Shown here: positions 2,711 through 32,227 of the stretch, in pieces
How positions within the stretch are numbered: the first letter of the stretch is position 1
Layout of the letters: every line of letters begins with the position of its first letter
Virus record (IMG/VR): IMGVR_UViG_3300045996_001085
Span: 1 to 50,970 of that record
Reading direction: 5' to 3' (one strand)
Source of the DNA: a virus
Taxonomy: Duplodnaviria > Caudoviricetes
DNA: 50,970 bases
Position numbers and translations under genes: made by a program
The notes under the pieces: model-generated
Databases searched by the model: none
What the model saw: only the letters and a program-made list of their open reading frames with translations
What the model was told of the DNA's origin: nothing

Positions 2711-3648
2711 GAGACATCACCATCGGCGAAACGATCGATATCAAGTTCTGTACTACAGAACCTGATACCGGTGCGCCTGCAACGCTCTCCGGTACGCCCG
2801 TTGTCTCTGCCTACGTTGGCAACTCGACGACACAGATCACTGCGGGCATCACGCTCTCTGTGGATTTCGATGGCGTGACTGGGCTGAACAACGTTCGCGT
2901 TGTGGCGACCACGGGTAATGGGTATGCCGATGGGACTGATGTCTCGCTGGTGATCACGACGGGGACGGTGGATGGCAATAGCGCTGTCGGGTACGTGATC
3001 GAGAATTTCACGATCGGACGCAGCGCGGGTAACACCGCGGTCAAGCCGGTTGCTCGCGCCACGTACCTCGTCGACACGACCATCGCCTCGCTCTCCAGTC
3101 AGACGAGTTTCACGCTCACCGCTGGCTCAGCAGATAACGATGCATACAACGGCATGGCGTTCATTTTCACCGATGCAAGCACTGCGGTTCAAAAGGGCGT
3201 TGCATTTTGTTCGGACTACGTCGGCAGCACGCGCACAGTGACGCTGGAAGCTGCACCAGGCTTCACCATTGCGACCAGCGATCTGGTTACGGTGGTGCCG
3301 GCTGGCAGTTCGACTAGTGCGCCATTGGCTGCGAACGTGACGCAGGTGGCCGGAGCCGCGGTTAACACTTCGAGTGCTCAGCTGGGCGTCAACGTGGTGA
3401 ATGCGGCCGGAACTGCCTGGGGATCCGGCGCGATCACGGCGGGGGCAATCGCATCGAACGCTCTTACATCCGCCAAGTTTGCGTCTGACGCCATCACGGC
3501 GGCGAAGGTTGCGGCGGACGTGGGTACCGAGATTGCTGCTGCGGTGCTGACGGCTGCAGCCGCAGACCCCATCGACGCGAACGTTGAGCAGATCAACACC
3601 GTGGCCATCACGGGCGATGGCCAGACTGGAACTGAGTTCTCGGTGTAG
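2707..3648 (+). CDS. Fibre-like virion structural protein
   Basis: Ala/Thr/Gly rich; repeats NVTQVAG/NVVNAAG/NVEQINT and 10-aa AIT(A/S)AK-type repeats. Confidence 0.55.
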   Translation: MRDITIGETIDIKFCTTEPDTGAPATLSGTPVVSAYVGNSTTQITAGITLSVDFDGVTGLNNVRVVATTGNGYADGTDVSLVITTGTVDGNSAVGYVIENFTIGRSAGNTAVKPVARATYLVDTTIASLSSQTSFTLTAGSADNDAYNGMAFIFTDASTAVQKGVAFCSDYVGSTRTVTLEAAPGFTIATSDLVTVVPAGSSTSAPLAANVTQVAGAAVNTSSAQLGVNVVNAAGTAWGSGAITAGAIASNALTSAKFASDAITAAKVAADVGTEIAAAVLTAAAADPIDANVEQINTVAITGDGQTGTEFSV

Positions 3649-6201: not shown

Positions 6202-6600
6202 ATGCCCCGAGGATTTGATGACCTGCAGGTTTCCCTGCATGGCCGACGCACCGGCCTGGACAAAGACGACTTTCTGGCTGCGCGCGGCTACCGCTACGAA
6301 CTGGAGGCAGGCTCGACGGGCACCACGATTCCCAATGGCGGCCTCACGTCGCTGTCGTCCTCGTCGGGCACGTATTCGCTGCAGGCCCCCAAGTCCGGCA
6401 TCGAGAAGATCCTGACCACGCTCACGACTTCGACGCTCGTTCGTCAGGTCACGCTGGCGTCGGGCAACTTCCAGTCCACTGCGGGATCGAGCTTCATCAC
6501 GGCGAGCTTCGACGGCCAGGGCGAGACGCTGACGTTGATCGGCCTCTCAACCGCACTGTTCGGCGTCGTCGGCAACATCGGCGTTTCGCTCAGCACCTAA
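6202..6600 (+). CDS. Ser/Thr-rich putative virion protein
   Basis: About one quarter Ser+Thr, beta-strand pattern, GAGGA RBS. Confidence 0.5.
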   Translation: MPRGFDDLQVSLHGRRTGLDKDDFLAARGYRYELEAGSTGTTIPNGGLTSLSSSSGTYSLQAPKSGIEKILTTLTTSTLVRQVTLASGNFQSTAGSSFITASFDGQGETLTLIGLSTALFGVVGNIGVSLST

Positions 6601-7512: not shown

Positions 7513-9085
7513 CATCATCAGCCGGCTGAATGCTCTGCCGGCAAAGGAGAAGGCGCAGGTGGTCAAGGACGTGACTGCCGCGACGGGGCACATGAAGTTC
7601 GTGCCGCTGCCAGGAAGGCAGACAGATGCCTATCTGTCCCGAGCGGACATCACGTTGTTCGGCGGCAAGGCAGGGGTCGGAAAGAGCGGCTTGCTTGTCG
7701 GTCTCGCGCAAGAGCATGACAACACGATCATCTTCCGTCGCGAAGCTGCCCAGACCGACGGTCTTGAACGCTTTGGCAAAGAAATCTACGGAACGGATTC
7801 CTTCAACGGCTCGGATCTCGAATGGAACTGGCCCGGCGGCCGTAGTCTCAAGCTTGCCGGTCTGAAAGAGCCGGATGCATGGCTTAAGCATGCCGGTCGC
7901 GCCCGGGATCTTATGGGCTTCGATGAGGCCGGCGAGTTTCTGGTTCAGCAAGTTGTTTCACTGCTTGCATGGCTTCGCGCAGCTGCGGGCAAGCGCTGCC
8001 GAATGGTGTTTGCGAGCAATCCGCCGCGCACAGCTGAAGGCGCATGGATCATCGAATGGTTCGCCCCCTGGCTGATCGGAAACAACCCAGCAAAGGCTGG
8101 CGAACTGCGTTGGGCGTTCATGGACCCGGATCGAATGATGCCGATCTGGGTAGAGGGTCCACACGTTCGCCAAGAAGGCAATGCGCCGCTTTCGTTCACG
8201 TTTATTCCGGCGGCGCTGGAAGACAATCCATACAACGATACGCCGGAATATCGGGCACGGCTTAATGCGCTGCCTGAGCCGCTGCGTAGTCAGTTGCGCG
8301 ACGGCATCTTCGCTCTCGGCGGTGAGGACGACGAATGGCAGATGATTCCAACGGCGTGGATCAAGGCCGCGCAGGATCGATGGAAGCCGCGGCCACCGGA
8401 CAACGTGCCCATGTGTGCAATCGGCGCTGACGTAGCGCAGGGCGGCGGCGATGACACTGCACTCGCTCCACGTTACGACGGCTATTACGAGCAGATCACG
8501 AAGGTTCCCGGCGCTCATACACCCGGAGGCGCGGAGGTCGCGGGCCTCGTTGTTTCGAAGCGCAAGCATGGCGCCACGATCATTCTAGATGTCGGCGGCG
8601 GTTGGGGCGCAGATGCATACGGCATCTTGCGTGGTGACAACCGCATGGATTCGAAGGAATGCGTCGCGTACATGGGCGTCAAGCCATCAGGCGCACGCTC
8701 GCGCGACAACCTGTTCAAGTTCACGAACGTGCGCAGCCAGCTCTACTGGCAGTTCCGCGAAGCGTTGGATCCGGACCAAGCTGGTGGCTCACCGATCGAT
8801 CTTCCGCCTGACAACGAACTTCTCGCCGATCTCACCGCTGTTCACTACGAGGTCGTCAACCGCGGTCACGAGGGTCAGTTCATCAAGGCGGAGGTGAAGG
8901 AGAAGGTCTGCAAGACGCTGGGGCGCTCGACGAACAAAGGTGATGCCGTGGTGATGTCCTGGTACGCCGGCGCACGCGCGATTGCTCGAGCCCGGCCGCC
9001 ATCGCTTGAGCACGGTGGAATTCGGCATTCCGGGCCGCAAGTGAACTACGGCCCACGCCGGCCTAACGGTATGAGGAGACATTGA
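7493..9085 (+). CDS. terL: Terminase large subunit
   Basis: Walker A GGKAGVGKS, Walker B GFDEA, ASNPP, nuclease IGADVAQGGGDDT. Confidence 0.93.
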   Translation: MTQLLDDIISRLNALPAKEKAQVVKDVTAATGHMKFVPLPGRQTDAYLSRADITLFGGKAGVGKSGLLVGLAQEHDNTIIFRREAAQTDGLERFGKEIYGTDSFNGSDLEWNWPGGRSLKLAGLKEPDAWLKHAGRARDLMGFDEAGEFLVQQVVSLLAWLRAAAGKRCRMVFASNPPRTAEGAWIIEWFAPWLIGNNPAKAGELRWAFMDPDRMMPIWVEGPHVRQEGNAPLSFTFIPAALEDNPYNDTPEYRARLNALPEPLRSQLRDGIFALGGEDDEWQMIPTAWIKAAQDRWKPRPPDNVPMCAIGADVAQGGGDDTALAPRYDGYYEQITKVPGAHTPGGAEVAGLVVSKRKHGATIILDVGGGWGADAYGILRGDNRMDSKECVAYMGVKPSGARSRDNLFKFTNVRSQLYWQFREALDPDQAGGSPIDLPPDNELLADLTAVHYEVVNRGHEGQFIKAEVKEKVCKTLGRSTNKGDAVVMSWYAGARAIARARPPSLEHGGIRHSGPQVNYGPRRPNGMRRH

Positions 9086-9363
9086 TGACTGGACTTCACA
9101 AGACTGCCAACAAGGTTATCCCGAAAGAGAACTGGCTGCTGCGCGCTAACCCTGCGGCCAAGAAGATCAACGAAGAAAACATGAGAACCCACGAGAGCCT
9201 CAACGCACGCATGAATCCGGAGCGTCCTCCGGAAGAGGCTCCGATACCGATGCCGGACGAGGAAGAGATCAAGCGCGCCAAGCGTCGCGGGCAGACGGCT
9301 CGCGGGGGAGGTCGCGCATCGACCATTCTCACGGGCGGCGACCAGGAGCGTCTCGGCGGATGA
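9085..9363 (+). CDS. Small pre-portal virion protein
   Basis: PMPDEE..RGGGRASTILTG..LGG typical of the gene preceding T7/BPP-1-like portals. Confidence 0.6.
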   Translation: MTGLHKTANKVIPKENWLLRANPAAKKINEENMRTHESLNARMNPERPPEEAPIPMPDEEEIKRAKRRGQTARGGGRASTILTGGDQERLGG

Positions 9364-10988
9364 TCGATATTAAGAAGCTGATTGCGCTAGGCGATCAGCT
9401 TTTCGGCAGTCGCGGCACGTGGATCATGCTGCTCCAGGAGATCGCAGAGAACTTCTACTGTGAAAGGGCGGATTTCACTGTAAAGCGCGAACTTGGTGAC
9501 GACTACGCTGGCAACCTGACGACGAGCTATCCGCTGATGGTTCGTCGCGAACTGGGCGACTCGATCTCGTCAATGCTCCGTCCGCGTGGGCAGGAATGGT
9601 TTTCGATCTCGATCGATGATGAGACGGGCCTCGACAATTCCGGCCGGCAGTGGCTGGAGTGGGCGACTGGCGTACAGAAGCGCGCCATGTATGACCGCAT
9701 GTCGCAGTTCGTGCGTGCGACTAAGGAAGGCGACCACGATTTCGCCGCATTCGGACAATGCGTCGTTTCGGTCGAGATTGATTGGTCGACGACGACGTTG
9801 CTCTATCGAAATTGGCATCTGCGCGACGTTGCGTGGTGCGAGCGTTACAACGGGAGCATCGGTGACATTCATCGCAACTGGTGCCCGGATGTTCGCACGC
9901 TGATGACGATCTTCGGCAAGGACAAGCTGCATCAGAACGTAGTCAACCTGCTGGAGAAGGAACCGTATCGGAAGATCAGGTGCCGTCATGTCGTGATTCC
10001 GGCCGATCAGTACGATGGTGATCAGCGTTACCGCACGCCGTACGTCTCGATCTATATCGACATCGAGAACGGGCACCTCATCAGTGAGGTTGCGTCGTGG
10101 TCGCAGATCTACTGCATCCCGCGCTGGCAGACGGTCTCCGGTTCGCAGTATGCGTACTCGCCGGCCGCTGTCGCAGGATTGCCGGATGCTCGTCTATTGC
10201 AGGCGATGACGCTAACGCTTCTCGAGGCCGGTGAGCTGGCGGTGCGCCCGCCGATGATTGCTACCAAAGAAGCGATCCGCGGTGACGTTGCGCTGTACGC
10301 CGGGGGCATCACGTGGGCTGACGCGCAGTATGACGAGCGGCTCGGCGAGGTGCTGCGTCCGTTGACACAAGACAAGTCCGGCCTACCGTTTGGTCTCGAC
10401 GTGTCTGAGGAAAAGAAGCAAATGCTGGCGCAGGCGTTTTACCTCAATAAGCTGAGTCTGCCGCCGGCAGGCGAAGGCGAGATGACGGCGTACGAGACCA
10501 GCCAGCGAATTCAAGAGTACATTCGCAACGCGCTCCCGCTCTTTGAGCCGATGGAAGTTGAGTACAACGGCGCGCTATGCGAAATGACGTTCGACGCGCT
10601 GATGCGTGTCGGTGCGTTCGGTCCGGTAGACGATTTTCCGGAGTCGCTGCAAGGCGAAGATGTTCGCTTCAAGTTCGAATCGCCACTGCACCAGGCGATC
10701 GAGCGCCAGAAGGGCCAGAAGTTCCTTGAGGCGAAAGGCTTGTTGCGTGAGGCCGCTGAGCTGGATCCATCATCAAACGCTGTGGTCGACGCTCGGATTG
10801 CTCTACGCGAGGCACTGTCCGGTATCGGCGTGCCGGCGAAATGGATGCGTTCCGAAGCGGATGTCGAAGCGCACGCTCAGCAGCAAGCTCAGCAGCAGCA
10901 GGCCCAAGAAGCACTAGCGATCGCTCAGCAGGGCGCTGATGTGGCGAAGACTGCCGGCGAAGCTGCAGTAGTGGGTGAGGCAGCTTGA
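9360..10988 (+). CDS. Portal (head-to-tail connector, T7 gp8/Bbp21-like)
   Basis: 542 aa; PRWQTVSGSQYAYSP, MTAYE, FESPL motifs; Gln-rich tail. Confidence 0.9.
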   Translation: MIDIKKLIALGDQLFGSRGTWIMLLQEIAENFYCERADFTVKRELGDDYAGNLTTSYPLMVRRELGDSISSMLRPRGQEWFSISIDDETGLDNSGRQWLEWATGVQKRAMYDRMSQFVRATKEGDHDFAAFGQCVVSVEIDWSTTTLLYRNWHLRDVAWCERYNGSIGDIHRNWCPDVRTLMTIFGKDKLHQNVVNLLEKEPYRKIRCRHVVIPADQYDGDQRYRTPYVSIYIDIENGHLISEVASWSQIYCIPRWQTVSGSQYAYSPAAVAGLPDARLLQAMTLTLLEAGELAVRPPMIATKEAIRGDVALYAGGITWADAQYDERLGEVLRPLTQDKSGLPFGLDVSEEKKQMLAQAFYLNKLSLPPAGEGEMTAYETSQRIQEYIRNALPLFEPMEVEYNGALCEMTFDALMRVGAFGPVDDFPESLQGEDVRFKFESPLHQAIERQKGQKFLEAKGLLREAAELDPSSNAVVDARIALREALSGIGVPAKWMRSEADVEAHAQQQAQQQQAQEALAIAQQGADVAKTAGEAAVVGEAA

Positions 10989-11290
10989 ACAAGCCGAAGC
11001 TTCCGATCGCCGAGCCTTGGAAGCCAACCGATTGGGATCTGGCCGACGCTGCGGCGATCCAGGCGCTCGTCCGTGGTGACGCTTCTCACGAGCAGCAGCG
11101 GCGTGCAATCGACTTCATCATCAATGGCGTCGCGTGCACCTACGACCTTTCCTACCGCCCCGGCAGTGATCGCGACACTGCGTTCGCCGAGGGCAAACGT
11201 TTTGTCGGCCTTCAGCTCGTGAAGGCCATCAACCTCAACCTCGCCGCAATCCGGCAAGCAAAAGACAATACGCCACGAGAGCAGGCGTAA
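10985..11290 (+). CDS. Bbp19-like protein
   Basis: TAFAEGKRFVGLQL motif; directly follows portal. Confidence 0.7.
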   Translation: MNKPKLPIAEPWKPTDWDLADAAAIQALVRGDASHEQQRRAIDFIINGVACTYDLSYRPGSDRDTAFAEGKRFVGLQLVKAINLNLAAIRQAKDNTPREQA

Positions 11291-11314
11291 TCCCGTCAAC
11301 ACAGGAGACTGGCA

Positions 11315-12289
11315 GTGCCCGACCCGAATCAAAACTCTGGCGATCCGAACGCGAATCAAAACCCAAGCGGCGGCGACTGGCGCACGACATTTGGTGCCGA
11401 CGCCACGCAAGCCCTGTCCGGCTTCAAGGAGCCGGGCGACTTCTTCAAGCAATTCCAAACGGTGTCAACCGAGTTGGATGGACTGAAGAAGAGCCCGCCG
11501 ACGTTCGACTGGCGTAAGGAGATGGCGGGTGACGACGCCGACTTCGCCAAGCAGCTGGAACGCTTCTCGACTGGTAAGGACTTCAGCAAGGCATTCCGCG
11601 AGGCGCAGACAAAGATTCGTTCCGGCGAGCTCGGAAAACCATTACCGAAAGACGCGACCCCTGAGCAGATCGCCGAGTGGCGCGAAGGCAATGGCGTTCC
11701 TGAGAAGCCCGACGGCTACTTCTCGAGCATGCCGAATGGTCTGGTGATCGGCGCGGATGATAAGCCGATGTTCGACGCCGTCGCGGCTAAGTTCCATGAG
11801 CACAATGTGCGACCCGAGGTGATGCACGCCGTGGCGCAGTGGTACTACGGCATGCAGGATGAGCAGGTAGAGGCGCAAAAGGTCGCTGACGTCGAAGGTA
11901 AGAACAAGCTTGCCGGCGCGCTGCGGACCGCTTGGGGCAATGACTTCACTTCGAATAGTAACGTCTACGCGAGTTACATCGACTCAGCGCCGAAGGAAGT
12001 GAAGGAACTGCTGACGCAGGCTCGTGGACCGGATGGCAACTTCGTGTTGTACAACCCGGCCATCGTCTCGTGGCTCACGGCTCAGGCACGCGAGATCAAT
12101 CCGGCTGGTCATCTCGTGCCGAATACTGGCGCAGGTGACATGCAGTCGCTTCAAACTGAAATCGACAGTATCGAGAAGCTCATGCGTACCGATCGCCAGG
12201 CGTACAACAAGGACACGGCGAAGCAGGACCGCCTGCGTCAGCTGTACACCGCGCGCACCAAGCTGCAGGAGCGTGGCAGGGCCGCATGA
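11315..12289 (+). CDS. Capsid assembly scaffolding protein
   Basis: N-terminal Pro/Asn-rich segment, DWR, GVPEKPDGY, LRTAWGNDF; lies before capsid. Confidence 0.75.
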   Translation: MPDPNQNSGDPNANQNPSGGDWRTTFGADATQALSGFKEPGDFFKQFQTVSTELDGLKKSPPTFDWRKEMAGDDADFAKQLERFSTGKDFSKAFREAQTKIRSGELGKPLPKDATPEQIAEWREGNGVPEKPDGYFSSMPNGLVIGADDKPMFDAVAAKFHEHNVRPEVMHAVAQWYYGMQDEQVEAQKVADVEGKNKLAGALRTAWGNDFTSNSNVYASYIDSAPKEVKELLTQARGPDGNFVLYNPAIVSWLTAQAREINPAGHLVPNTGAGDMQSLQTEIDSIEKLMRTDRQAYNKDTAKQDRLRQLYTARTKLQERGRAA

Positions 12290-12492
12290 CGCGGATCAAG
12301 ATCAGGGCACTGCGAGCAGAGCTAGCAAACATCCTTGCGACTGTCCGCGATCGGCCGGTGACCATCACCAAACATGGCAACGACGTTGCGGTGATGGTCT
12401 CGCCTGAGGTCTATTCCGAGTACCTGCGGTTGCGAAGTGTGTACACAACCATACCGACGCGACGCCGACCTGAATTAGTTTCCTGCGTGTGA
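12286..12492 (+). CDS. Phd/YefM family antitoxin-like protein
   Basis: LRAELANILATVRDRPVTITKHGNDVAVMVSPEVY. Confidence 0.75.
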   Translation: MTRIKIRALRAELANILATVRDRPVTITKHGNDVAVMVSPEVYSEYLRLRSVYTTIPTRRRPELVSCV

Positions 12493-12612
12493 TCGGCTAA
12501 CCCGTAAGGCCCCGATCGAGAATGTTTCTTTTGCTGTAGCAAGGCCCCGCCTTGTCGAATGCAGGCCCGGCGCAACGCCGCTAACCCTGCGGAGACTGTC
12601 AGCGGCCAACCC
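12491..12612 (+). ncRNA. Putative structured 5' leader of the capsid gene
   Basis: Three helices each interrupted by a CC/CYAAC internal loop. Confidence 0.5.
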
Positions 12613-12652
12613 AAGCGAAGGCTTCACCCCCTTTTCTTTGGAGTTGGCAACC

Positions 12653-13507
12653 ATGGCTGAGACAGCCTTCCAGATTCAATACCGGCAGGAGTTCATTGCC
12701 GGTTTCGAGCAAACACAGTCGCTGCTTCGTGACGCGGTCACGACCGAGGCGGTCATCAAGGGCAATCAGGCGACGTTTCTAGTCGCTGATTCTGGCGATG
12801 CCGAAGCGAACACGCGCGGCGTCAATGGCTTGATCCCGGCGCGCGCAGACAACCTTGCTCAGAACACTGCGACGCTGGTCGAGTGGCATGACCTTGTGCG
12901 GAAGACGGACTTCAACGTTTTTGCCTCGCAGGGCAATCAGCGCGAGATCATGCAAAAGACCTCGATGGGGGTCATCAATCGCAAGGTCGACAGCGACATC
13001 ATCACCAAGCTCAACACCGGCACGGTGAACACCGGTGCTGCGGTAACCGCTTCGATCGCCGTTGTGACGAAGGCGCAGACAATCCTGCAAAACAACGATG
13101 TTCCTTGGGATTCGAACATCACTGCTCTCGTTACGCCGGCCTTTATGGGCTACATGCGCCAGACGAAGGAGTTCTCAAGCGCCGAGTATGTTGGCGGGAA
13201 GAAGCCGTGGGAAACGGGTGACCCGAACTGGCGCGACAAACCGATTGCCTACTTCTGGTTGGGCATGGTGTGGATTGTTCATCCGAACTTGCCGGGCAAG
13301 GCGACTTCGGCTGAGAAGTGCTTCGTTTTCCACAAGTCCGCGATCGGTCACGCGATCAACAAGGCCGGCATTCAGACGCCGGTCGGCTATAACGAAGAGC
13401 AGGCATATTCCTGGGCTCGCTGCTCGGCGGATATGGGCAGTGTCGTTCTTCAAAACGCGGGCATTGTCGTGGTGAATCATGACGGTTCCGCTCTGGTCGC
13501 GGCGTAG
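12653..13507 (+). CDS. Major capsid protein
   Basis: AFQIQYRQEFIAGFEQTQSLLR..; FHKSAIGHA; GGAG RBS; ATG at 12653. Confidence 0.88.
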   Translation: MAETAFQIQYRQEFIAGFEQTQSLLRDAVTTEAVIKGNQATFLVADSGDAEANTRGVNGLIPARADNLAQNTATLVEWHDLVRKTDFNVFASQGNQREIMQKTSMGVINRKVDSDIITKLNTGTVNTGAAVTASIAVVTKAQTILQNNDVPWDSNITALVTPAFMGYMRQTKEFSSAEYVGGKKPWETGDPNWRDKPIAYFWLGMVWIVHPNLPGKATSAEKCFVFHKSAIGHAINKAGIQTPVGYNEEQAYSWARCSADMGSVVLQNAGIVVVNHDGSALVAA

Positions 13508-13519
13508 GAGTAACTGAAC

Positions 13520-13789
13520 ATGTCGTATTCAACTTCTAGTCCTCCGTCTCTCGAAACCCAGGCAATCGCCGGGCCGAAGTCATTCATCTATCACTCGTCA
13601 GATGGCTCGACCTCGGTTTCTGCGTCCGGCTACATCAGCAACGGCCAGGATCTGGGCATGAAGCTCGGCGACCGTCTGACTCTGGTTGAGACCGATAACA
13701 GCTACGCGCGCTCCATCGGCGCGGTGACGGCTGTGTCGACCAGCGATGACTCGGTGACTGTTTCGTTCGGCTCGCTCACCTCGACCTGA
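13520..13789 (+). CDS. Ser/Thr-rich capsid decoration/cement protein
   Basis: Follows capsid; GYISNGQDLGMKLGD motif; about one third Ser+Thr. Confidence 0.6.
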   Translation: MSYSTSSPPSLETQAIAGPKSFIYHSSDGSTSVSASGYISNGQDLGMKLGDRLTLVETDNSYARSIGAVTAVSTSDDSVTVSFGSLTST

Positions 13790-13812
13790 CCGTCAAGGCA
13801 ATGGGCACTCAC

Positions 13813-13844
13813 GAAAGGCTCGCTTCGGCGGGCCTTTCTCTTTT
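13813..13844 (+). terminator. Rho-independent terminator
   Basis: GAAAGGCTCGC-TTCG-GCGGGCCTTTC followed by TCTTTT. Confidence 0.8.
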
Positions 13845-13866
13845 GTAACTCAGGAGACTGGCGATC

Positions 13867-14295
13867 ATGACTCAGCTTGCACCCAACGGTTTGAAGCCTT
13901 CGGAGAGCATTCGTAATCAATGGCATGCGGAACCCGAGCACGGGACGCCGCCTGAGGCGCTGCTGGATCCGGCGTACTGGGCGCATGTATCCGTGAAGAT
14001 GCGGCGTAAGGACATTGTCTGCGCGCTGGCGGTCGACAACAGCTACTTTTCAGAGCTGCTTGTGATCGATGTGGGCAAGAACTACGCGAAGGTTGTGCAG
14101 CTGAGATGCGTTCAGATCACACAGGCGCAGATTGTGAGGAACCCGATTCCCGATGGATTCGAGATCAAATTCCGCGGCAAGGAAACGAAGTGGTCTGTGC
14201 TTCGTGGCAAGGATGTTCTGAAGGACAAGCTGGAGACGCCTGACGCCGCGGAGCAATGGTTGGCGGATCATGTGAAGACGCTGAAGGCAGCCTAA
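13867..14295 (+). CDS. Hypothetical phage protein
   Basis: AGGAG RBS; LLDPAYWAHV motif. Confidence 0.6.
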   Translation: MTQLAPNGLKPSESIRNQWHAEPEHGTPPEALLDPAYWAHVSVKMRRKDIVCALAVDNSYFSELLVIDVGKNYAKVVQLRCVQITQAQIVRNPIPDGFEIKFRGKETKWSVLRGKDVLKDKLETPDAAEQWLADHVKTLKAA

Positions 14296-14296
14296 C

Positions 14297-14938
14297 GTGG
14301 CCAACAAGCTGAGCTTATACAACGGTGCGCTTCGAGAGGTTGGTGAGCGAAAGCTTGCGAGCCTCTCGGAGAATCGCGAGCCACGTAGGGTACTGGACTC
14401 CGCGTGGGATGCGGAAGCTGTCGCGACTTGCTTGGCGGCTGGACTTTGGAACTTCGCGACCAATTCGATTGAGCTGACGCATTCGCCTTCGGTCGATCCG
14501 GCGTTCGGCTACCAATACGCATTCGACAAGCCAGAGAACTGGGTACGCACGGTCGCTCTCTGCGAGGACGAGCGATTCAAGATGCCGCTCCTGCAATACC
14601 AAGACGAGGGGCGTTACTGGTATGCGGACGTGGAAACAATCTACGTGCGCTACATCGACATGGGCACGTCCTTCGGCCTCGACTACGGCAAGTGGCCGGT
14701 CAATTTCACACGCTACGCCGAGAGCTTTCTTGCGGCGCGCGTGTGCATGTCGCTCACGCAGAATCAGACGAAGCGTGACAACCTCGAGCGTGACGCTGAA
14801 GTGTGGCTAACCAAGGCGAAATCGACTGACGCCATGGACGAGCCAACGAAGTTTCCGCCGCCCGGCACGTGGTCGACAGCGCGTCATGGCCGAAGCGTGC
14901 GCCATGATCGCGGTAGCCGGAGTAGGTTGATCGGATAA
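14297..14938 (+). CDS. Tail tubular protein A (T7 gp11-like adaptor)
   Basis: LYNGALREVGE, WNFAT, FGYQYAFDKP. Confidence 0.8.
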   Translation: MANKLSLYNGALREVGERKLASLSENREPRRVLDSAWDAEAVATCLAAGLWNFATNSIELTHSPSVDPAFGYQYAFDKPENWVRTVALCEDERFKMPLLQYQDEGRYWYADVETIYVRYIDMGTSFGLDYGKWPVNFTRYAESFLAARVCMSLTQNQTKRDNLERDAEVWLTKAKSTDAMDEPTKFPPPGTWSTARHGRSVRHDRGSRSRLIG

Positions 14939-29948: not shown

Positions 29949-30176
29949 TTGAAATCACTGTACACCCAGCGTCAGGAGCGCCTGCGCGCGATCTTCAAAG
30001 AGGAGCGGCTGAAGGCAGGGATGACCCAAGCTCAGCTGTGCCGGCGGCTAGAGCGCCATCACAATTTCGTCTCGTACGTTGAAAATGGGACGACGATGCT
30101 CGACGCGATCGAATTCATCGAATACGCCGAGGCGCTCGGGTTGGATCCCAAGAAGGTGCTCGGTAAAGTGATCTGA
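29949..30176 (+). CDS. XRE-family HTH regulator
   Basis: RLKAGMTQAQLCRRLERHHNFVSYVENG..LDAIEF. Confidence 0.8.
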   Translation: MKSLYTQRQERLRAIFKEERLKAGMTQAQLCRRLERHHNFVSYVENGTTMLDAIEFIEYAEALGLDPKKVLGKVI

Positions 30177-30460
30177 TGAGCTACTCCCCAGGAACCGCAG
30201 AGGCGCTGACTCTTACCGAGTCGGCGTCCCAGATCGCCTATTGCTATTACTGCCAGGCGTGCCCGTTCAAGGAGCGCATCAACCTCACGCGAATCGCTGC
30301 TGACTACCCTATAGAGACGCTGGTCGGGGACTTATTGGGACTGCTGCCGTGTGGAAAATGTGGCAGCACCAAGAAGATCGTGATGACGCTGTGGCTCAAT
30401 GCGACAACGACCGATCGGATGTTGGAGGAGCGGGGCTTCCCTATCTGGGATGACGACTGA
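30176..30460 (+). CDS. Small Zn-binding protein
   Basis: CQAC...CGKCGS; TGATG coupling. Confidence 0.6.
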   Translation: MSYSPGTAEALTLTESASQIAYCYYCQACPFKERINLTRIAADYPIETLVGDLLGLLPCGKCGSTKKIVMTLWLNATTTDRMLEERGFPIWDDD

Positions 30461-30875: not shown

Positions 30876-32051
30876 CTAGTCATCGTTAGCCACCCTAAGT
30901 CCCTGAATTAGCTCGCAAACCTCTGCCTTGACATGGTGGGGGTCACAGGTTCGATCCCTGTTGCGCGCACCAAAACTTCCATTCGCAACAATGAGTTGCG
31001 GTTTCCGCTGTTCGGACTCGCTGGCCAGTGGCAAGTAAGTGGCAAGCCAGGGCGGCGAAATCTTGCGTAGCAAACGCTCTACGGACGCCGCCGCGGCGCG
31101 CATGTACTCGGGGCGGTAGTGCGCGTAGCGCTCCGTCTCGCCCCCTATAGCGTGTCCCAGCATGCCCTTCACGTCCCACTCGGGGACACCTTCCTTGCGC
31201 AGCCAGATCGACACCGCCTTGCGGATGCCATAGGCGGTCCCTTTGACCTTTGCTCGAGCGCTGATCCGGCGGAACGTCATCTTGAATCCCTTCAACTGCC
31301 GGCCGCGCCATTGGATGATCGGCCCCACGGAACGCTGATCGTTCAGATAGGCAAGGGCTGGAGCGCACAAGGGAGCCTTCGCGCGGCGCTTCTTCGTGAC
31401 CTTTCGACCAGGCACGACGTAGTCGACGACGCCGGTCTCAGCATCCAGGCGATCCCATGTAAGGTCCAGCGTGGCGCCCGGCCGGCAAGCCGTTGCCAAG
31501 GCCAGCAGAAAAAATCGGCGCTCGTGCTCATGGACGCACGCGTTCGCCAGCGCGGCGAGCTCGGCGACTTCAAACGGCTTCACGCCTTCCCCATCTGCCG
31601 CCTGCATCTTGAACATGGGCGGCATAGAGGGGATCTCGCCAGCGTCGAACGTCCACTTCACCGCGGCGCGCACCACGCCCCATCGACGGCGCTGCGTGTT
31701 CGGTTTCTTCGCCAACTTCTCGACGAACTCTTTCTGCCGCGGGATCGACCAGTGGAATAGACGCGTCTCGGGCTCGTGCTCGCAGATCAGCCCCATCACC
31801 TGTCGTACGGTCTCGGCCGAGAAGACGTGCTGACCGTGGTGCTGGTAGTAGCGAAGCATGATCTTGACCAGCGTCGCATCGTTCATCACCTGCCGCTGAG
31901 GCAGCTTCAGGATGTGCTCGGCGAGCTTCCTTTCGGCGACTTCGCGATCCGTCGTGCGAGTACTAAAGCGCTCGCATTGTCCAGTTCGCTCGTCGTACTC
32001 GTATATGTACCAGTTGGGGCTGCCTTCTCTTGGGCCGAGGTAGCAGTGCAT
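30876..32051 (-). CDS. int: Tyrosine recombinase/integrase
   Basis: TACRPGATLDLTW, YGIRK, LGH, TERY catalytic motifs; overlaps attP. Confidence 0.92.
   Translation of the reverse strand: MHCYLGPREGSPNWYIYEYDERTGQCERFSTRTTDREVAERKLAEHILKLPQRQVMNDATLVKIMLRYYQHHGQHVFSAETVRQVMGLICEHEPETRLFHWSIPRQKEFVEKLAKKPNTQRRRWGVVRAAVKWTFDAGEIPSMPPMFKMQAADGEGVKPFEVAELAALANACVHEHERRFFLLALATACRPGATLDLTWDRLDAETGVVDYVVPGRKVTKKRRAKAPLCAPALAYLNDQRSVGPIIQWRGRQLKGFKMTFRRISARAKVKGTAYGIRKAVSIWLRKEGVPEWDVKGMLGHAIGGETERYAHYRPEYMRAAAASVERLLRKISPPWLATYLPLASESEQRKPQLIVANGSFGARNRDRTCDPHHVKAEVCELIQGLRVANDD
30926..30972 (+). other. attP core = 3' half of tRNA-Val(GAC)
   Basis: CC-TTGACAT-GGTGG anticodon arm, ACAGG-TTCGATC-CCTGT T arm, CCA end; 5' half absent. 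Confidence 0.9.
31021..31046. repeat. Integrase arm-type site cluster, right of core
   Basis: CTGGCCAGTGGCAAGTAAGTGGCAAG. Confidence 0.7.
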
Positions 32052-32227
32052 TCTTGGCTCCGCAGGTACTCTTTGATGTGTTTGTCGGTCGTGTAGACCT
32101 TTTTGCCGACGCGAGTAAACCCCAGCAGTCGCCTCCGGCGCAACCGCCCGACCGTGGCCGGCGAGCACCGCAGTGGGATTGCGGCCTCATCGTCGTTGTA
32201 CAGTTTGGGCAGTTCAGTGACGTCCAT
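31907..32227 (-). CDS. xis: Excisionase-like HTH protein
   Basis: EAAIPLRCSPATVGRLRRRRLLGFTRVGKKVYTT; directly upstream of and overlapping int. Confidence 0.75.
   Translation of the reverse strand: MDVTELPKLYNDDEAAIPLRCSPATVGRLRRRRLLGFTRVGKKVYTTDKHIKEYLRSQECTATSAQEKAAPTGTYTSTTSELDNASALVLARRIAKSPKGSSPSTS

Follow-up and report, generated by a model that had tools for sequence, protein, structure and literature searches.

Between the stop codon of a small Phd-like open reading frame (ORF) and the start codon of the major capsid protein gene of the IMG/VR virus IMGVR_UViG_3300045996_001085 lies a gap of 160 nt, which is filled by the leader element that is the subject of this analysis. The window that we analyzed is the whole record of 50,970 bp (completeness estimate 96%), and all leader features are located on its + strand. 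The first-pass annotation, made from the letters of the DNA alone, had proposed three copies of an asymmetric internal loop in this leader, and inspection of the sequence located the three corresponding strings at 12491-12517, at 12561-12590, and at 12543-12550 opposite 12602-12612. Each copy, hereafter called a module, follows the consensus 5′-GG[NNAMC]CC-3′ opposite 5′-GG[CY]CC-3′, and the same loop indeed recurs in both orientations and on different stems. The leader features and the capsid gene itself are as follows:

12491..12517, + strand: module 1 (hairpin 1), GATCGG-[CTAAC]-CC-GTAA-GG-[CC]-CCGATC, read from the sequence and present in the minimum free energy (MFE) structure
12491-12496 with 12512-12517, + strand: helix P1 of module 1
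12497-12501, + strand: 5-nt loop CUAAC of module 1, opposite the 2-nt loop CC at 12510-11
12502-03 with 12508-09, + strand: inner CC:GG pairs of module 1, capped by a GUAA tetraloop at 12504-07
12531..12542, + strand: clade-specific small hairpin UUGC-UGUA-GCAA directly 5′ of the module 3 GG, read from the sequence
12539..12555, + strand: alternative local hairpin GCAAGGC-CCC-GCCUUGU, which buries the module 3 5′ strand (MFE)
12543..12550, + strand: 5′ strand of module 3 (enclosing helix), consisting of GG 12543-44, loop CC 12545-46 and CCGC 12547-50, from covariation and an anchor-based listing
12560..12591, + strand: module 2 (hairpin 2), GCAGG-[CC]-CGGCG-CAA-CGCCG-[CTAAC]-CCTGC, from the sequence, the MFE structure and de novo RNAalifold
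12561-65 with 12586-90, + strand: outer helix of module 2; the inner helix pairs 12568-72 with 12576-80
12566-67, + strand: 2-nt loop CC of module 2, with the loop CAA at 12573-75 and the 5-nt loop CUAAC at 12581-85
12602..12612, + strand: 3′ strand of module 3, consisting of GCGG 12602-05, the 5-nt loop CCAAC 12606-10 and CC 12611-12, pairing with 12543-12550
12640..12643, + strand: Shine-Dalgarno (SD) sequence GGAG, 9 nt 5′ of the capsid ATG, read from the sequence
12653..13507, + strand: major capsid protein gene, 284 aa, ATG at 12653 (PF19821, E 1.9e-25; phrog_3437, E 1.2e-65)

Thermodynamics alone would not flag this region: the MFE of positions 12480-12660 is −62.4 kcal/mol compared to −57.8 ± 4.5 kcal/mol for shuffled sequences (z = −1.02), and 32 of 200 shuffles are as good. 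The MFE structure keeps hairpins 1 and 2, and the local hairpin CAAGGC-CCC-GCCTTG replaces the enclosing helix. When both strands of the whole window were scanned for the geometry of the modules (a 5-nt NNAMC loop opposite CY, with G/CC flanks and helices of at least 2+4 bp), four modules were found, three of them within 12491-12612; 100 Markov simulations gave 2.24 per window on average. The window also holds 12 CYAACCC sites vs. 5.6 expected; among these, a site at 9146 inside a small ORF and one at 6597 at a gene end were discarded, as neither forms a module.

Conservation and covariation of the three modules

Of 254 capsid relatives in IMG/VR, we took the best 80 (62–86% identity) and added 24 further loci from bacterial genome contigs, mostly metagenome-assembled genomes (MAGs) with proteobacterial titles. 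Some of these 24 loci lie within contigs of 0.2–3.5 Mb, indicating that they are prophages. No cultured relative was detected in 50,697 phage records, where blastn gave no DNA match and tblastn only two capsid matches with 25–27% identity. The 230 nt upstream of each capsid gene show the same architecture in most relatives, i.e., a hairpin with [NNAMC] on its 5′ side and [CC] on its 3′ side, a GG-[CC]-CCNN strand, a hairpin with the loops reversed, and an NNGG-[NNAMC]-CC strand, which is followed by ∼38 nt in which a small hairpin and a U-rich run precede the SD and the start codon. The clade-specific hairpin of the window is shared as a YUGC-UGUA-GCAR version with the relatives L002, L023, L024 and L027.

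A covariance model, R1, was built from 24 leaders with the three-module structure and searched against both strands of 91 sources (586 kb). It yielded 65 matches in the 91 sources (60 distinct; 53 at E ≤ 0.01), one per locus, all of which are on the + strand just 5′ of a capsid homolog. Among the 26 sources without a match is a clade whose leader is of another type. In the window, R1 has a single match at 12489-12617 with E 8e-9, the next best having E 0.44. On the 60 distinct rows, 90.2% of the cells are paired, compared to 69.9 ± 0.7% for shuffled rows and 20–48% for slid partners, and 22 of 24 pairs are changed on both sides (covariation score 0.495 vs. 0.147). Thus, the assignment of a structured RNA to the capsid-gene leader is borne out, and covariation and loop conservation in homologs, on which the first-pass annotation had staked its proposal, are both present.

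Modules 1 (R1 helices 1 and 2; 97.9% and 94.2% paired) and 2 (R1 helices 6 and 7; 88.6% and 97.5% paired) each have 8 of 8 pairs changed on both sides. The enclosing helix (R1 helices 3–5), proposed initially from 12543-12550 and 12602-12612 of the window, covaries in its inner pairs as well, e.g., at columns 119/202 (UA:29 GC:18 AU:2) and 124/201 (GC:26 UA:8 CG:4 AU:2), so that these pairs read CCTG/CAGG, CCGC/GCGG, CCTT/AAGG, CTGAC/GTCAG, CCGTT/AACGG, CCGGC/GCCGG and others in different relatives. The R1 alignment is fitted to the model, and an anchor-based listing that was made before any model gives the same pairs. De novo prediction with RNAalifold recovered modules 1 and 2 and did not recover the long-range helix. 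A local hairpin of at least 4 bp at the module 3 5′ strand is possible in 40 of 60 relatives; as a conserved helix it could not be established (3.98 bp for cognate vs. 3.64 bp for swapped arms).

The element appears to be tied to capsid genes. A sequence-pattern scan of IMG/VR that ignored the capsid gene revealed 46 new loci, 26 of which have strong R1 matches, and 26 of these 26 adjoin a capsid homolog. The remaining loci lack an R1 match, and all but two of them lack a capsid homolog; the element was never seen away from capsid genes among the 46 loci. A pattern with a gap of 18–32 nt gave 18 IMG/VR stretches, none of which has a capsid gene, and was rejected because its best R1 match (E 0.18) is at chance level. 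In line with the earlier remark that the RNA is not a named family, a search of the whole window against Rfam 15 at gathering thresholds returned 0 matches, and at E ≤ 10 the region 12350-12750 has only chance-level hits to RF01109 (E 0.27) and RF00489 (E 1.4), outside or beside the element. It is the comparative evidence, i.e., covariation among homologs and not MFE, that settles the reality of the leader: judged from sequence comparison, the three-module leader is a conserved folded RNA family and not a chance arrangement.

Not only the stems but also the loops follow clear rules. In the 60 distinct rows, the 5-nt strand reads NNAMC and is mostly CUAAC, CCAAC, ACAAC or ACACC, and the 2-nt strand is CC in 39–41 rows per module. 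Position 4 of the 5-nt strand is either A or C, and loops 2 and 3 never differ in this state (37 A/A, 21 C/C, 0 mixed; n = 58), with loop 1 disagreeing in 3 of 52 leaders. On the capsid tree the state changes at least 11 times, although recombination of leaders could lower the true number of such events, and in each of 7 independent contrasts with good branch support, loops 2 and 3 switch as a pair. Within a leader, positions 1 and 2 are free to vary, yet mixed position-4 states do not occur, a pattern that favors a single common reader of the loops or mutual contacts between them.

Organism titles are available for L082–L105: alphaproteobacterial MAGs carry the A type (…AAC) in 6 of 6 cases, and the other titles carry the C type (…ACC) in nine cases, including Burkholderiales and Steroidobacteraceae, and the A type in two. 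The loop type seems to follow host class, which, given the small sample and the unreliable binning of phage contigs, can serve as a lead only. No neighbor protein tracks the loop type in a comparison of six sister pairs that differ in it and six that do not, and in this comparison the capsid is far more conserved than its neighbors. Kink-turns have tandem sheared G·A pairs next to a 3-nt bulge, and the 11-nt tetraloop receptor reads CCUAAG/UAUGG. The leader loops, with NNAMC opposite CC or CY and without a G·A pair, agree with neither of these consensus sequences, and the repeated 5 × 2 loop may represent a new RNA structural motif.

A predicted alternative pairing with the Shine-Dalgarno region

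The 3′ strand of module 3 has a second candidate partner, namely the SD region of the capsid gene. In the window, the predicted features of this pairing are:

12605..12648, + strand: sequestering helix, in which 12605-12610 pair with 12643-12648 and 12611-12615 with 12637-12641, with A12642 bulged (MFE, duplex energies)
12617-21 with 12630-34, + strand: small hairpin enclosed by the sequestering helix (MFE)

The whole GGAG is inside this helix in the MFE structures of both the full leader and the tail. Tails, spanning the module 3 3′ strand to the start codon, were folded for each relative, and in nearly all of them a helix joins the CC(C) 3′ of the third loop, and the next bases, to the leading GG of the SD and its 5′ neighbors, again enclosing a small hairpin. 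In several lineages, pairing with the SD-ATG spacer is added, which involves the third loop and the stem bases 5′ of it.

Cognate partners fit each other better than swapped ones. Duplex energies are −12.78 kcal/mol for cognate vs. −8.98 kcal/mol for swapped partners when the whole module 3 3′ strand is paired with the SD region, −4.79 vs. −2.90 kcal/mol for the 10 nt after the loop with 8 nt plus the SD GG, and −5.40 vs. −4.15 kcal/mol for stem and loop with the last 12 nt before the ATG, and in each of the three comparisons 0 of 500 partner swaps were as good. Compensating pairs include CCAAC/GTTGG (window and L024) vs. CCATC/GATGG (L027), CAGACAC/GTGTCTG (L082), GACGGAC/GTCCGTC (L090), CCGATTT/AAATTGG, CCGAAAA/TTTTTGG, and CCGTCGCTG/CAGTGATGG in L091 and L095. 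A second model, R2, derives from 13 tails; in its alignment of 35 distinct rows, 79.7% of the cells are paired compared to 71.9% for shuffled rows and 33–46% for slid partners; 7 of 11 pairs are changed on both sides. The many G-U pairs (27 rows at one position) indicate that the folded strand is the + strand RNA. In these alignments, the SD-region pairing of the module 3 3′ strand is found to covary across the relatives. Because module 3 and the SD helix share this strand and use the same bases (12602-12612 in the window), the two structures are mutually exclusive. It is this covarying competition between module 3 and the SD region, as predicted from the alignments, that is new here.

The distance between element and gene is also constrained. 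In 58 of the 60 distinct leaders the R1 match ends 30–47 nt before the capsid start codon, even at capsid identities of 44–60%, and one of the two exceptions, L031, is only apparent: the start codon of its capsid gene lies 30 nt 3′ of the element, and the gene is split further on. On the 5′ side, 26 of 60 leaders have a sigma-70-like promoter (at least 9 of 12 matches) whose end lies 6–20 nt from the first helix, and in the window and several relatives the stop codon of the upstream gene abuts the element; the Phd-like stop codon of the window overlaps the first bases of helix P1.

Enforcing module 3 lowers the predicted cost of opening the ribosome-binding site (RBS) in 54 of 58 leaders, from a mean of 13.5 kcal/mol in the free ensemble to 8.7 kcal/mol, and in the window from 16.0 to 5.1 kcal/mol. 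The value of 16.0 kcal/mol makes the capsid RBS the most costly of 22 gene starts in the window (others 8.3 ± 2.1 kcal/mol, maximum 13.0).

Downstream of the start codon, capsid codons 2–5 can form a hairpin, GGCUG-AGA-CAGCC (12656-12668), which reads GGCUG-AAA-CAGCC in many relatives, and pairing is also possible in the largest clade between AGCC of the SD-ATG spacer and AUGGCU. The regulatory fold may include the start of the capsid coding region.

A candidate switch for capsid translation

We lean towards a model in which the 160-nt leader acts as a cis-acting RNA switch with two states that controls capsid translation. As module 3 shares a strand with the competing SD helix, the leader most likely switches capsid synthesis on and off. 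In the OFF state, the module 3 3′ strand would pair with the SD and its flanks and thereby mask the RBS, and in many relatives the 5′ strand would fold into its own small hairpin. In the ON state, the 3′ strand would instead pair with the upstream GG-CC-CCGC, which would complete the third loop and release the RBS. The three identical loops would then be displayed together, and one multivalent partner could read them and pay for the ON state. What the sequences show is that the leader is conserved, that both alternative pairings covary, that its distance from the start codon is fixed and that the loop variants change in concert, while we infer the interconversion of the states in vivo, which of them permits translation, and the existence and nature of the effector. 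SD-sequestering switches are characterized by a conserved structured sensor and by a strand with two exclusive partners, and both features are found here computationally; we regard the leader as a new RNA family whose kind of regulation is known.

As its partner, a protein seems most likely, either of the phage late program or of the host, because the sites are small, repeated, orientation-independent, and change in concert. A small ligand, ions or protons, or mutual tertiary packing of the loops are less likely. A multivalent protein-binding element had already been suggested in the first-pass annotation; a single multivalent binder fits the concerted A/C loops and the protein-binding idea is plausible, whereas the binding partner itself is hypothetical. 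The role in assembly or scaffold/capsid stoichiometry that had been envisaged with it was not retained, since the SD pairing, which had been missed, points to translational control instead. The Phd-like protein is an unlikely partner, as its gene occupies this place in the window only and in no relative examined. More tentatively, the three-loop domain might be a new multivalent RNA sensor, with the A/C dimorphism as a specificity switch matched to a partner that differs by host class or phage lineage. If true, a factor specific to host or stage would license the synthesis of the virion's most abundant protein, through a mechanism at the RNA level that has yet to be described in tailed phages.

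Several observations weigh against a two-state switch. The nearest-neighbor model assigns module 3 an average energy cost of 9.2 kcal/mol (14.4 kcal/mol in the window), so that a stabilizer outside the energy model would be required, and any module 3 pair is part of the MFE structure of only 13 of 58 leaders. The SD unpaired fraction of 0.35 in the ON-constrained MFE structures is no higher than that of the free ensemble (0.31), i.e., only the opening energy differs between the ON and the free state. The outer GG:CC pairs of module 3 compete with the SD in most relatives and are nearly invariant, and hence covariation cannot prove them. Only 22 of 58 leaders have a strong pairing of stem and loop with the spacer (E ≤ −6), vs. 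14% of shuffles, and the spacer of the largest clade can also pair with the first codons. Moreover, the R2 count comes from 35 rows of mostly one clade, including three stray low-scoring matches, and the partner-swap and shuffle statistics ignore kinship. The window has no sigma-70-like promoter before the element (best 6 of 12 matches; none promoter-like in 11000-14500), which implies that the RNA is internal to a longer transcript there. Finally, neither the comparison of neighbor proteins nor a scan for CxxC motifs named an effector. A look-up of sequencing runs yielded two soil DNA runs, one of which may be the source, and no RNA run.

Among the alternatives, we consider it unlikely that the leader is static, its hairpins protecting the capsid mRNA from 5′-end-dependent decay or providing a fixed enhancer or standby site, with a weak SD helix that is simply opened by the ribosome. 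In 26 of 60 relatives, the promoter that ends shortly before P1 would make the element the very start of the transcript; many of the hairpins are capped by stable tetraloops of the GNRA or UUCG type, and no effector has been found. However, stabilizing hairpins require stems and not a loop sequence in three copies that changes in concert, both exclusive pairings covary, the other relatives and the window have no promoter at this position, and an RBS that costs a mean of 13.5 kcal/mol to open, and in the window more than at any of the other gene starts compared, would be odd for the most needed protein if it were never relieved. A metabolite or ion riboswitch, in which the loops or a packed domain bind a ligand, Mg2+ or protons and the bound state frees the SD, would account for the classic anatomy of conserved loop nucleotides, covarying stems and an expression platform that sequesters the SD. 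With almost exclusively A and C opposite CC, the loops could form A+·C and C+·C pairs, and in purine riboswitches a one-base change alters specificity. On the other hand, pockets of 5 × 2 nt are very small, no Rfam riboswitch matches, and an A/C state that apparently follows host class, albeit in a small sample, suits a macromolecular partner better than a universal metabolite, which makes this explanation doubtful.

An improbable role is that of a processive antitermination RNA, which would bind RNA polymerase and allow read-through into ∼17 kb of tail genes. The put RNA of phage HK022 is portrayed in the available passages of its description as a promoter-proximal, cis-acting RNA of ∼70 nt with two stems and a triplex that binds RNA polymerase (PMC9378689). 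The leader resembles it, as far as that account goes, as a phage cis-acting multi-stem RNA with bulges for which no processed product is needed (PMC9378689). It also lies directly 3′ of a promoter in 26 of 60 relatives, and a terminator-like hairpin with a T run at 13813-13838 follows the capsid gene and one small gene. Yet, many relatives and the window have no promoter there, and the leader has three modules in ∼110–130 nt rather than the two stems and triplex given for put (PMC9378689). Antitermination needs neither a fixed spacing to the start codon, a link that put does not require, nor a covarying SD pairing, and R1 run over the whole HK022 genome with filters off gave a best E of 2, with no match at the early promoters. 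That the leader consists of chance inverted repeats, or is a protein-binding palindrome or cruciform at the DNA level, is highly improbable: the MFE z of only −1.02 in the window would allow it, whereas the strong covariation with changing stem sequences, the G-U pairs, which are A-C mismatches on the other strand, and the restriction of all matches to the + strand in a two-strand search of 586 kb contradict it.

A switch of capsid translation would have parallels in known systems. Translational ON riboswitches such as the add adenine riboswitch combine a conserved sensor with a closing helix that competes with an SD-masking helix. The leader shares with them the competition between closing and SD-masking helix, the covarying stems and the conserved loop nucleotides; it differs in that its sensor consists of three copies of a 5 × 2 loop on separate helices rather than a single junction pocket, precedes a phage structural gene, has no Rfam match, and has a hypothetical effector. 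In the mom/Com system of phage Mu, the start of a late gene is locked in a stem and is opened by a factor that binds an upstream RNA structure. Here, too, the translation start region of a phage late gene would be masked, but the upstream domain is much larger and repeated, and the protein partner is hypothetical. No CxxC pair indicative of a Com-like zinc finger was found beside the element in six translated ORFs (9085-14295); small ORFs with at least two CxxC motifs do occur elsewhere in the window, e.g., at 30176-30460, distant from the element. Operators with repeated sites, such as the MS2 coat operator or RAT/LicT with two similar internal loops, likewise present short loops whose sequence is fixed within helices whose stems vary, the arrangement to be expected of sites recognized by a protein. 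The loops of the leader differ from these in sequence and geometry, there are three sites instead of one or two, and binding is putative.

Literature searches on structured RNAs upstream of phage capsid genes and on put RNA returned no description of the leader element. A catalog of IMG/VR intergenic regions comprises 8,495 candidate RNAs, five of which are typically upstream of the major capsid protein domain PHA00201, and the passages of its text that mention these five provide no structure, name or mechanism for them (PMC10690425). One of the five could overlap the capsid leader element (PMC10690425). Post-transcriptional control of the structural genes of tailed phages is barely charted, and an orphan regulatory RNA that covaries strongly and repeats a compact recognition motif offers an entry point to a new RNA-binding factor or ligand. 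The leader may also teach how capsid output is timed or matched to scaffold supply.

Genomic setting and related leaders

The lineage is large, uncultivated, temperate and podovirus-like, combining a T7-type portal and tail tube with an integrase, and the MAG titles are mostly those of Proteobacteria. The following genes of the window provide its context:

9360-10988, + strand: T7-type portal gene (PF12236)
11315-12289, + strand: scaffold-like gene (phrog_3742)
12286..12492, + strand: Phd/YefM-like orphan antitoxin ORF, 68 aa (Pfam PF02604, E 2.6e-10)
10985-11290 and 13520-13789: small proteins
30876-32168: integrase

Two small genes and then the genes of tail tubular proteins A and B, on the + strand, follow 3′ of the capsid gene, and no phage RNA polymerase was seen among the ORFs scanned in the window. 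The Phd/YefM-like ORF is translationally coupled to the scaffold gene by an ATGA overlap (12286-12289), and no toxin gene comes after it. This ORF is a neighbor of the conserved element and lies outside it: its place is taken in the relatives by the scaffold gene, other small ORFs or a promoter, and with such varied contents the scaffold-capsid junction looks like an insertion hot spot. In T7-like phages a terminator lies 3′ of gene 10, which the terminator-like hairpin of the window (13813-13838; 11 pairs followed by TCTTTTG) recalls; a scan found no intrinsic terminator inside the leader of the window. Sister pairs among L001–L080 have capsids that are 79–98% identical, compared to ∼30–80% identity or no match for the scaffold and small neighbors, which suggests a mosaic module structure or a much stronger constraint on the capsid.

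Some relatives carry other types of leaders. In the clade of L012, L017, L018, L021, L022, L030, L035 and L047, the ∼200 nt upstream of the capsid start (3001) hold a different leader with symmetric 2 × 2 loops, CC/CC or CC/UC, e.g., GACCG-CC-CCGC…GCGG-CC-CGGTC in L018. R1 has no match in these leaders, and in L017, the one clade member that was checked, the SD pairs with a different upstream strand (TCCAT/ATGGA). The 2 × 2-loop leaders may constitute a sister family. The alphaproteobacterial prophages L097–L101, L103 and L104, whose capsids are 52–56% identical, have two GG/AG-ACAAC-C motifs upstream of position 3001, located ∼8 nt before a GGAGG, with a likely earlier start codon. These motifs may be a shortened variant beyond the reach of R1.

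In L031 (2045-3816), the capsid gene is split after ∼12 codons (…IQYRQ) by an insert of ∼950 nt, and the frame resumes at ∼2998. The insert encodes a 270-aa LAGLIDADG homing endonuclease (PF00961, E 5.9e-9) and has no match to an Rfam intron model at E ≤ 0.1. From its ORF and position, it looks like an intron with a homing endonuclease inside the major capsid gene.

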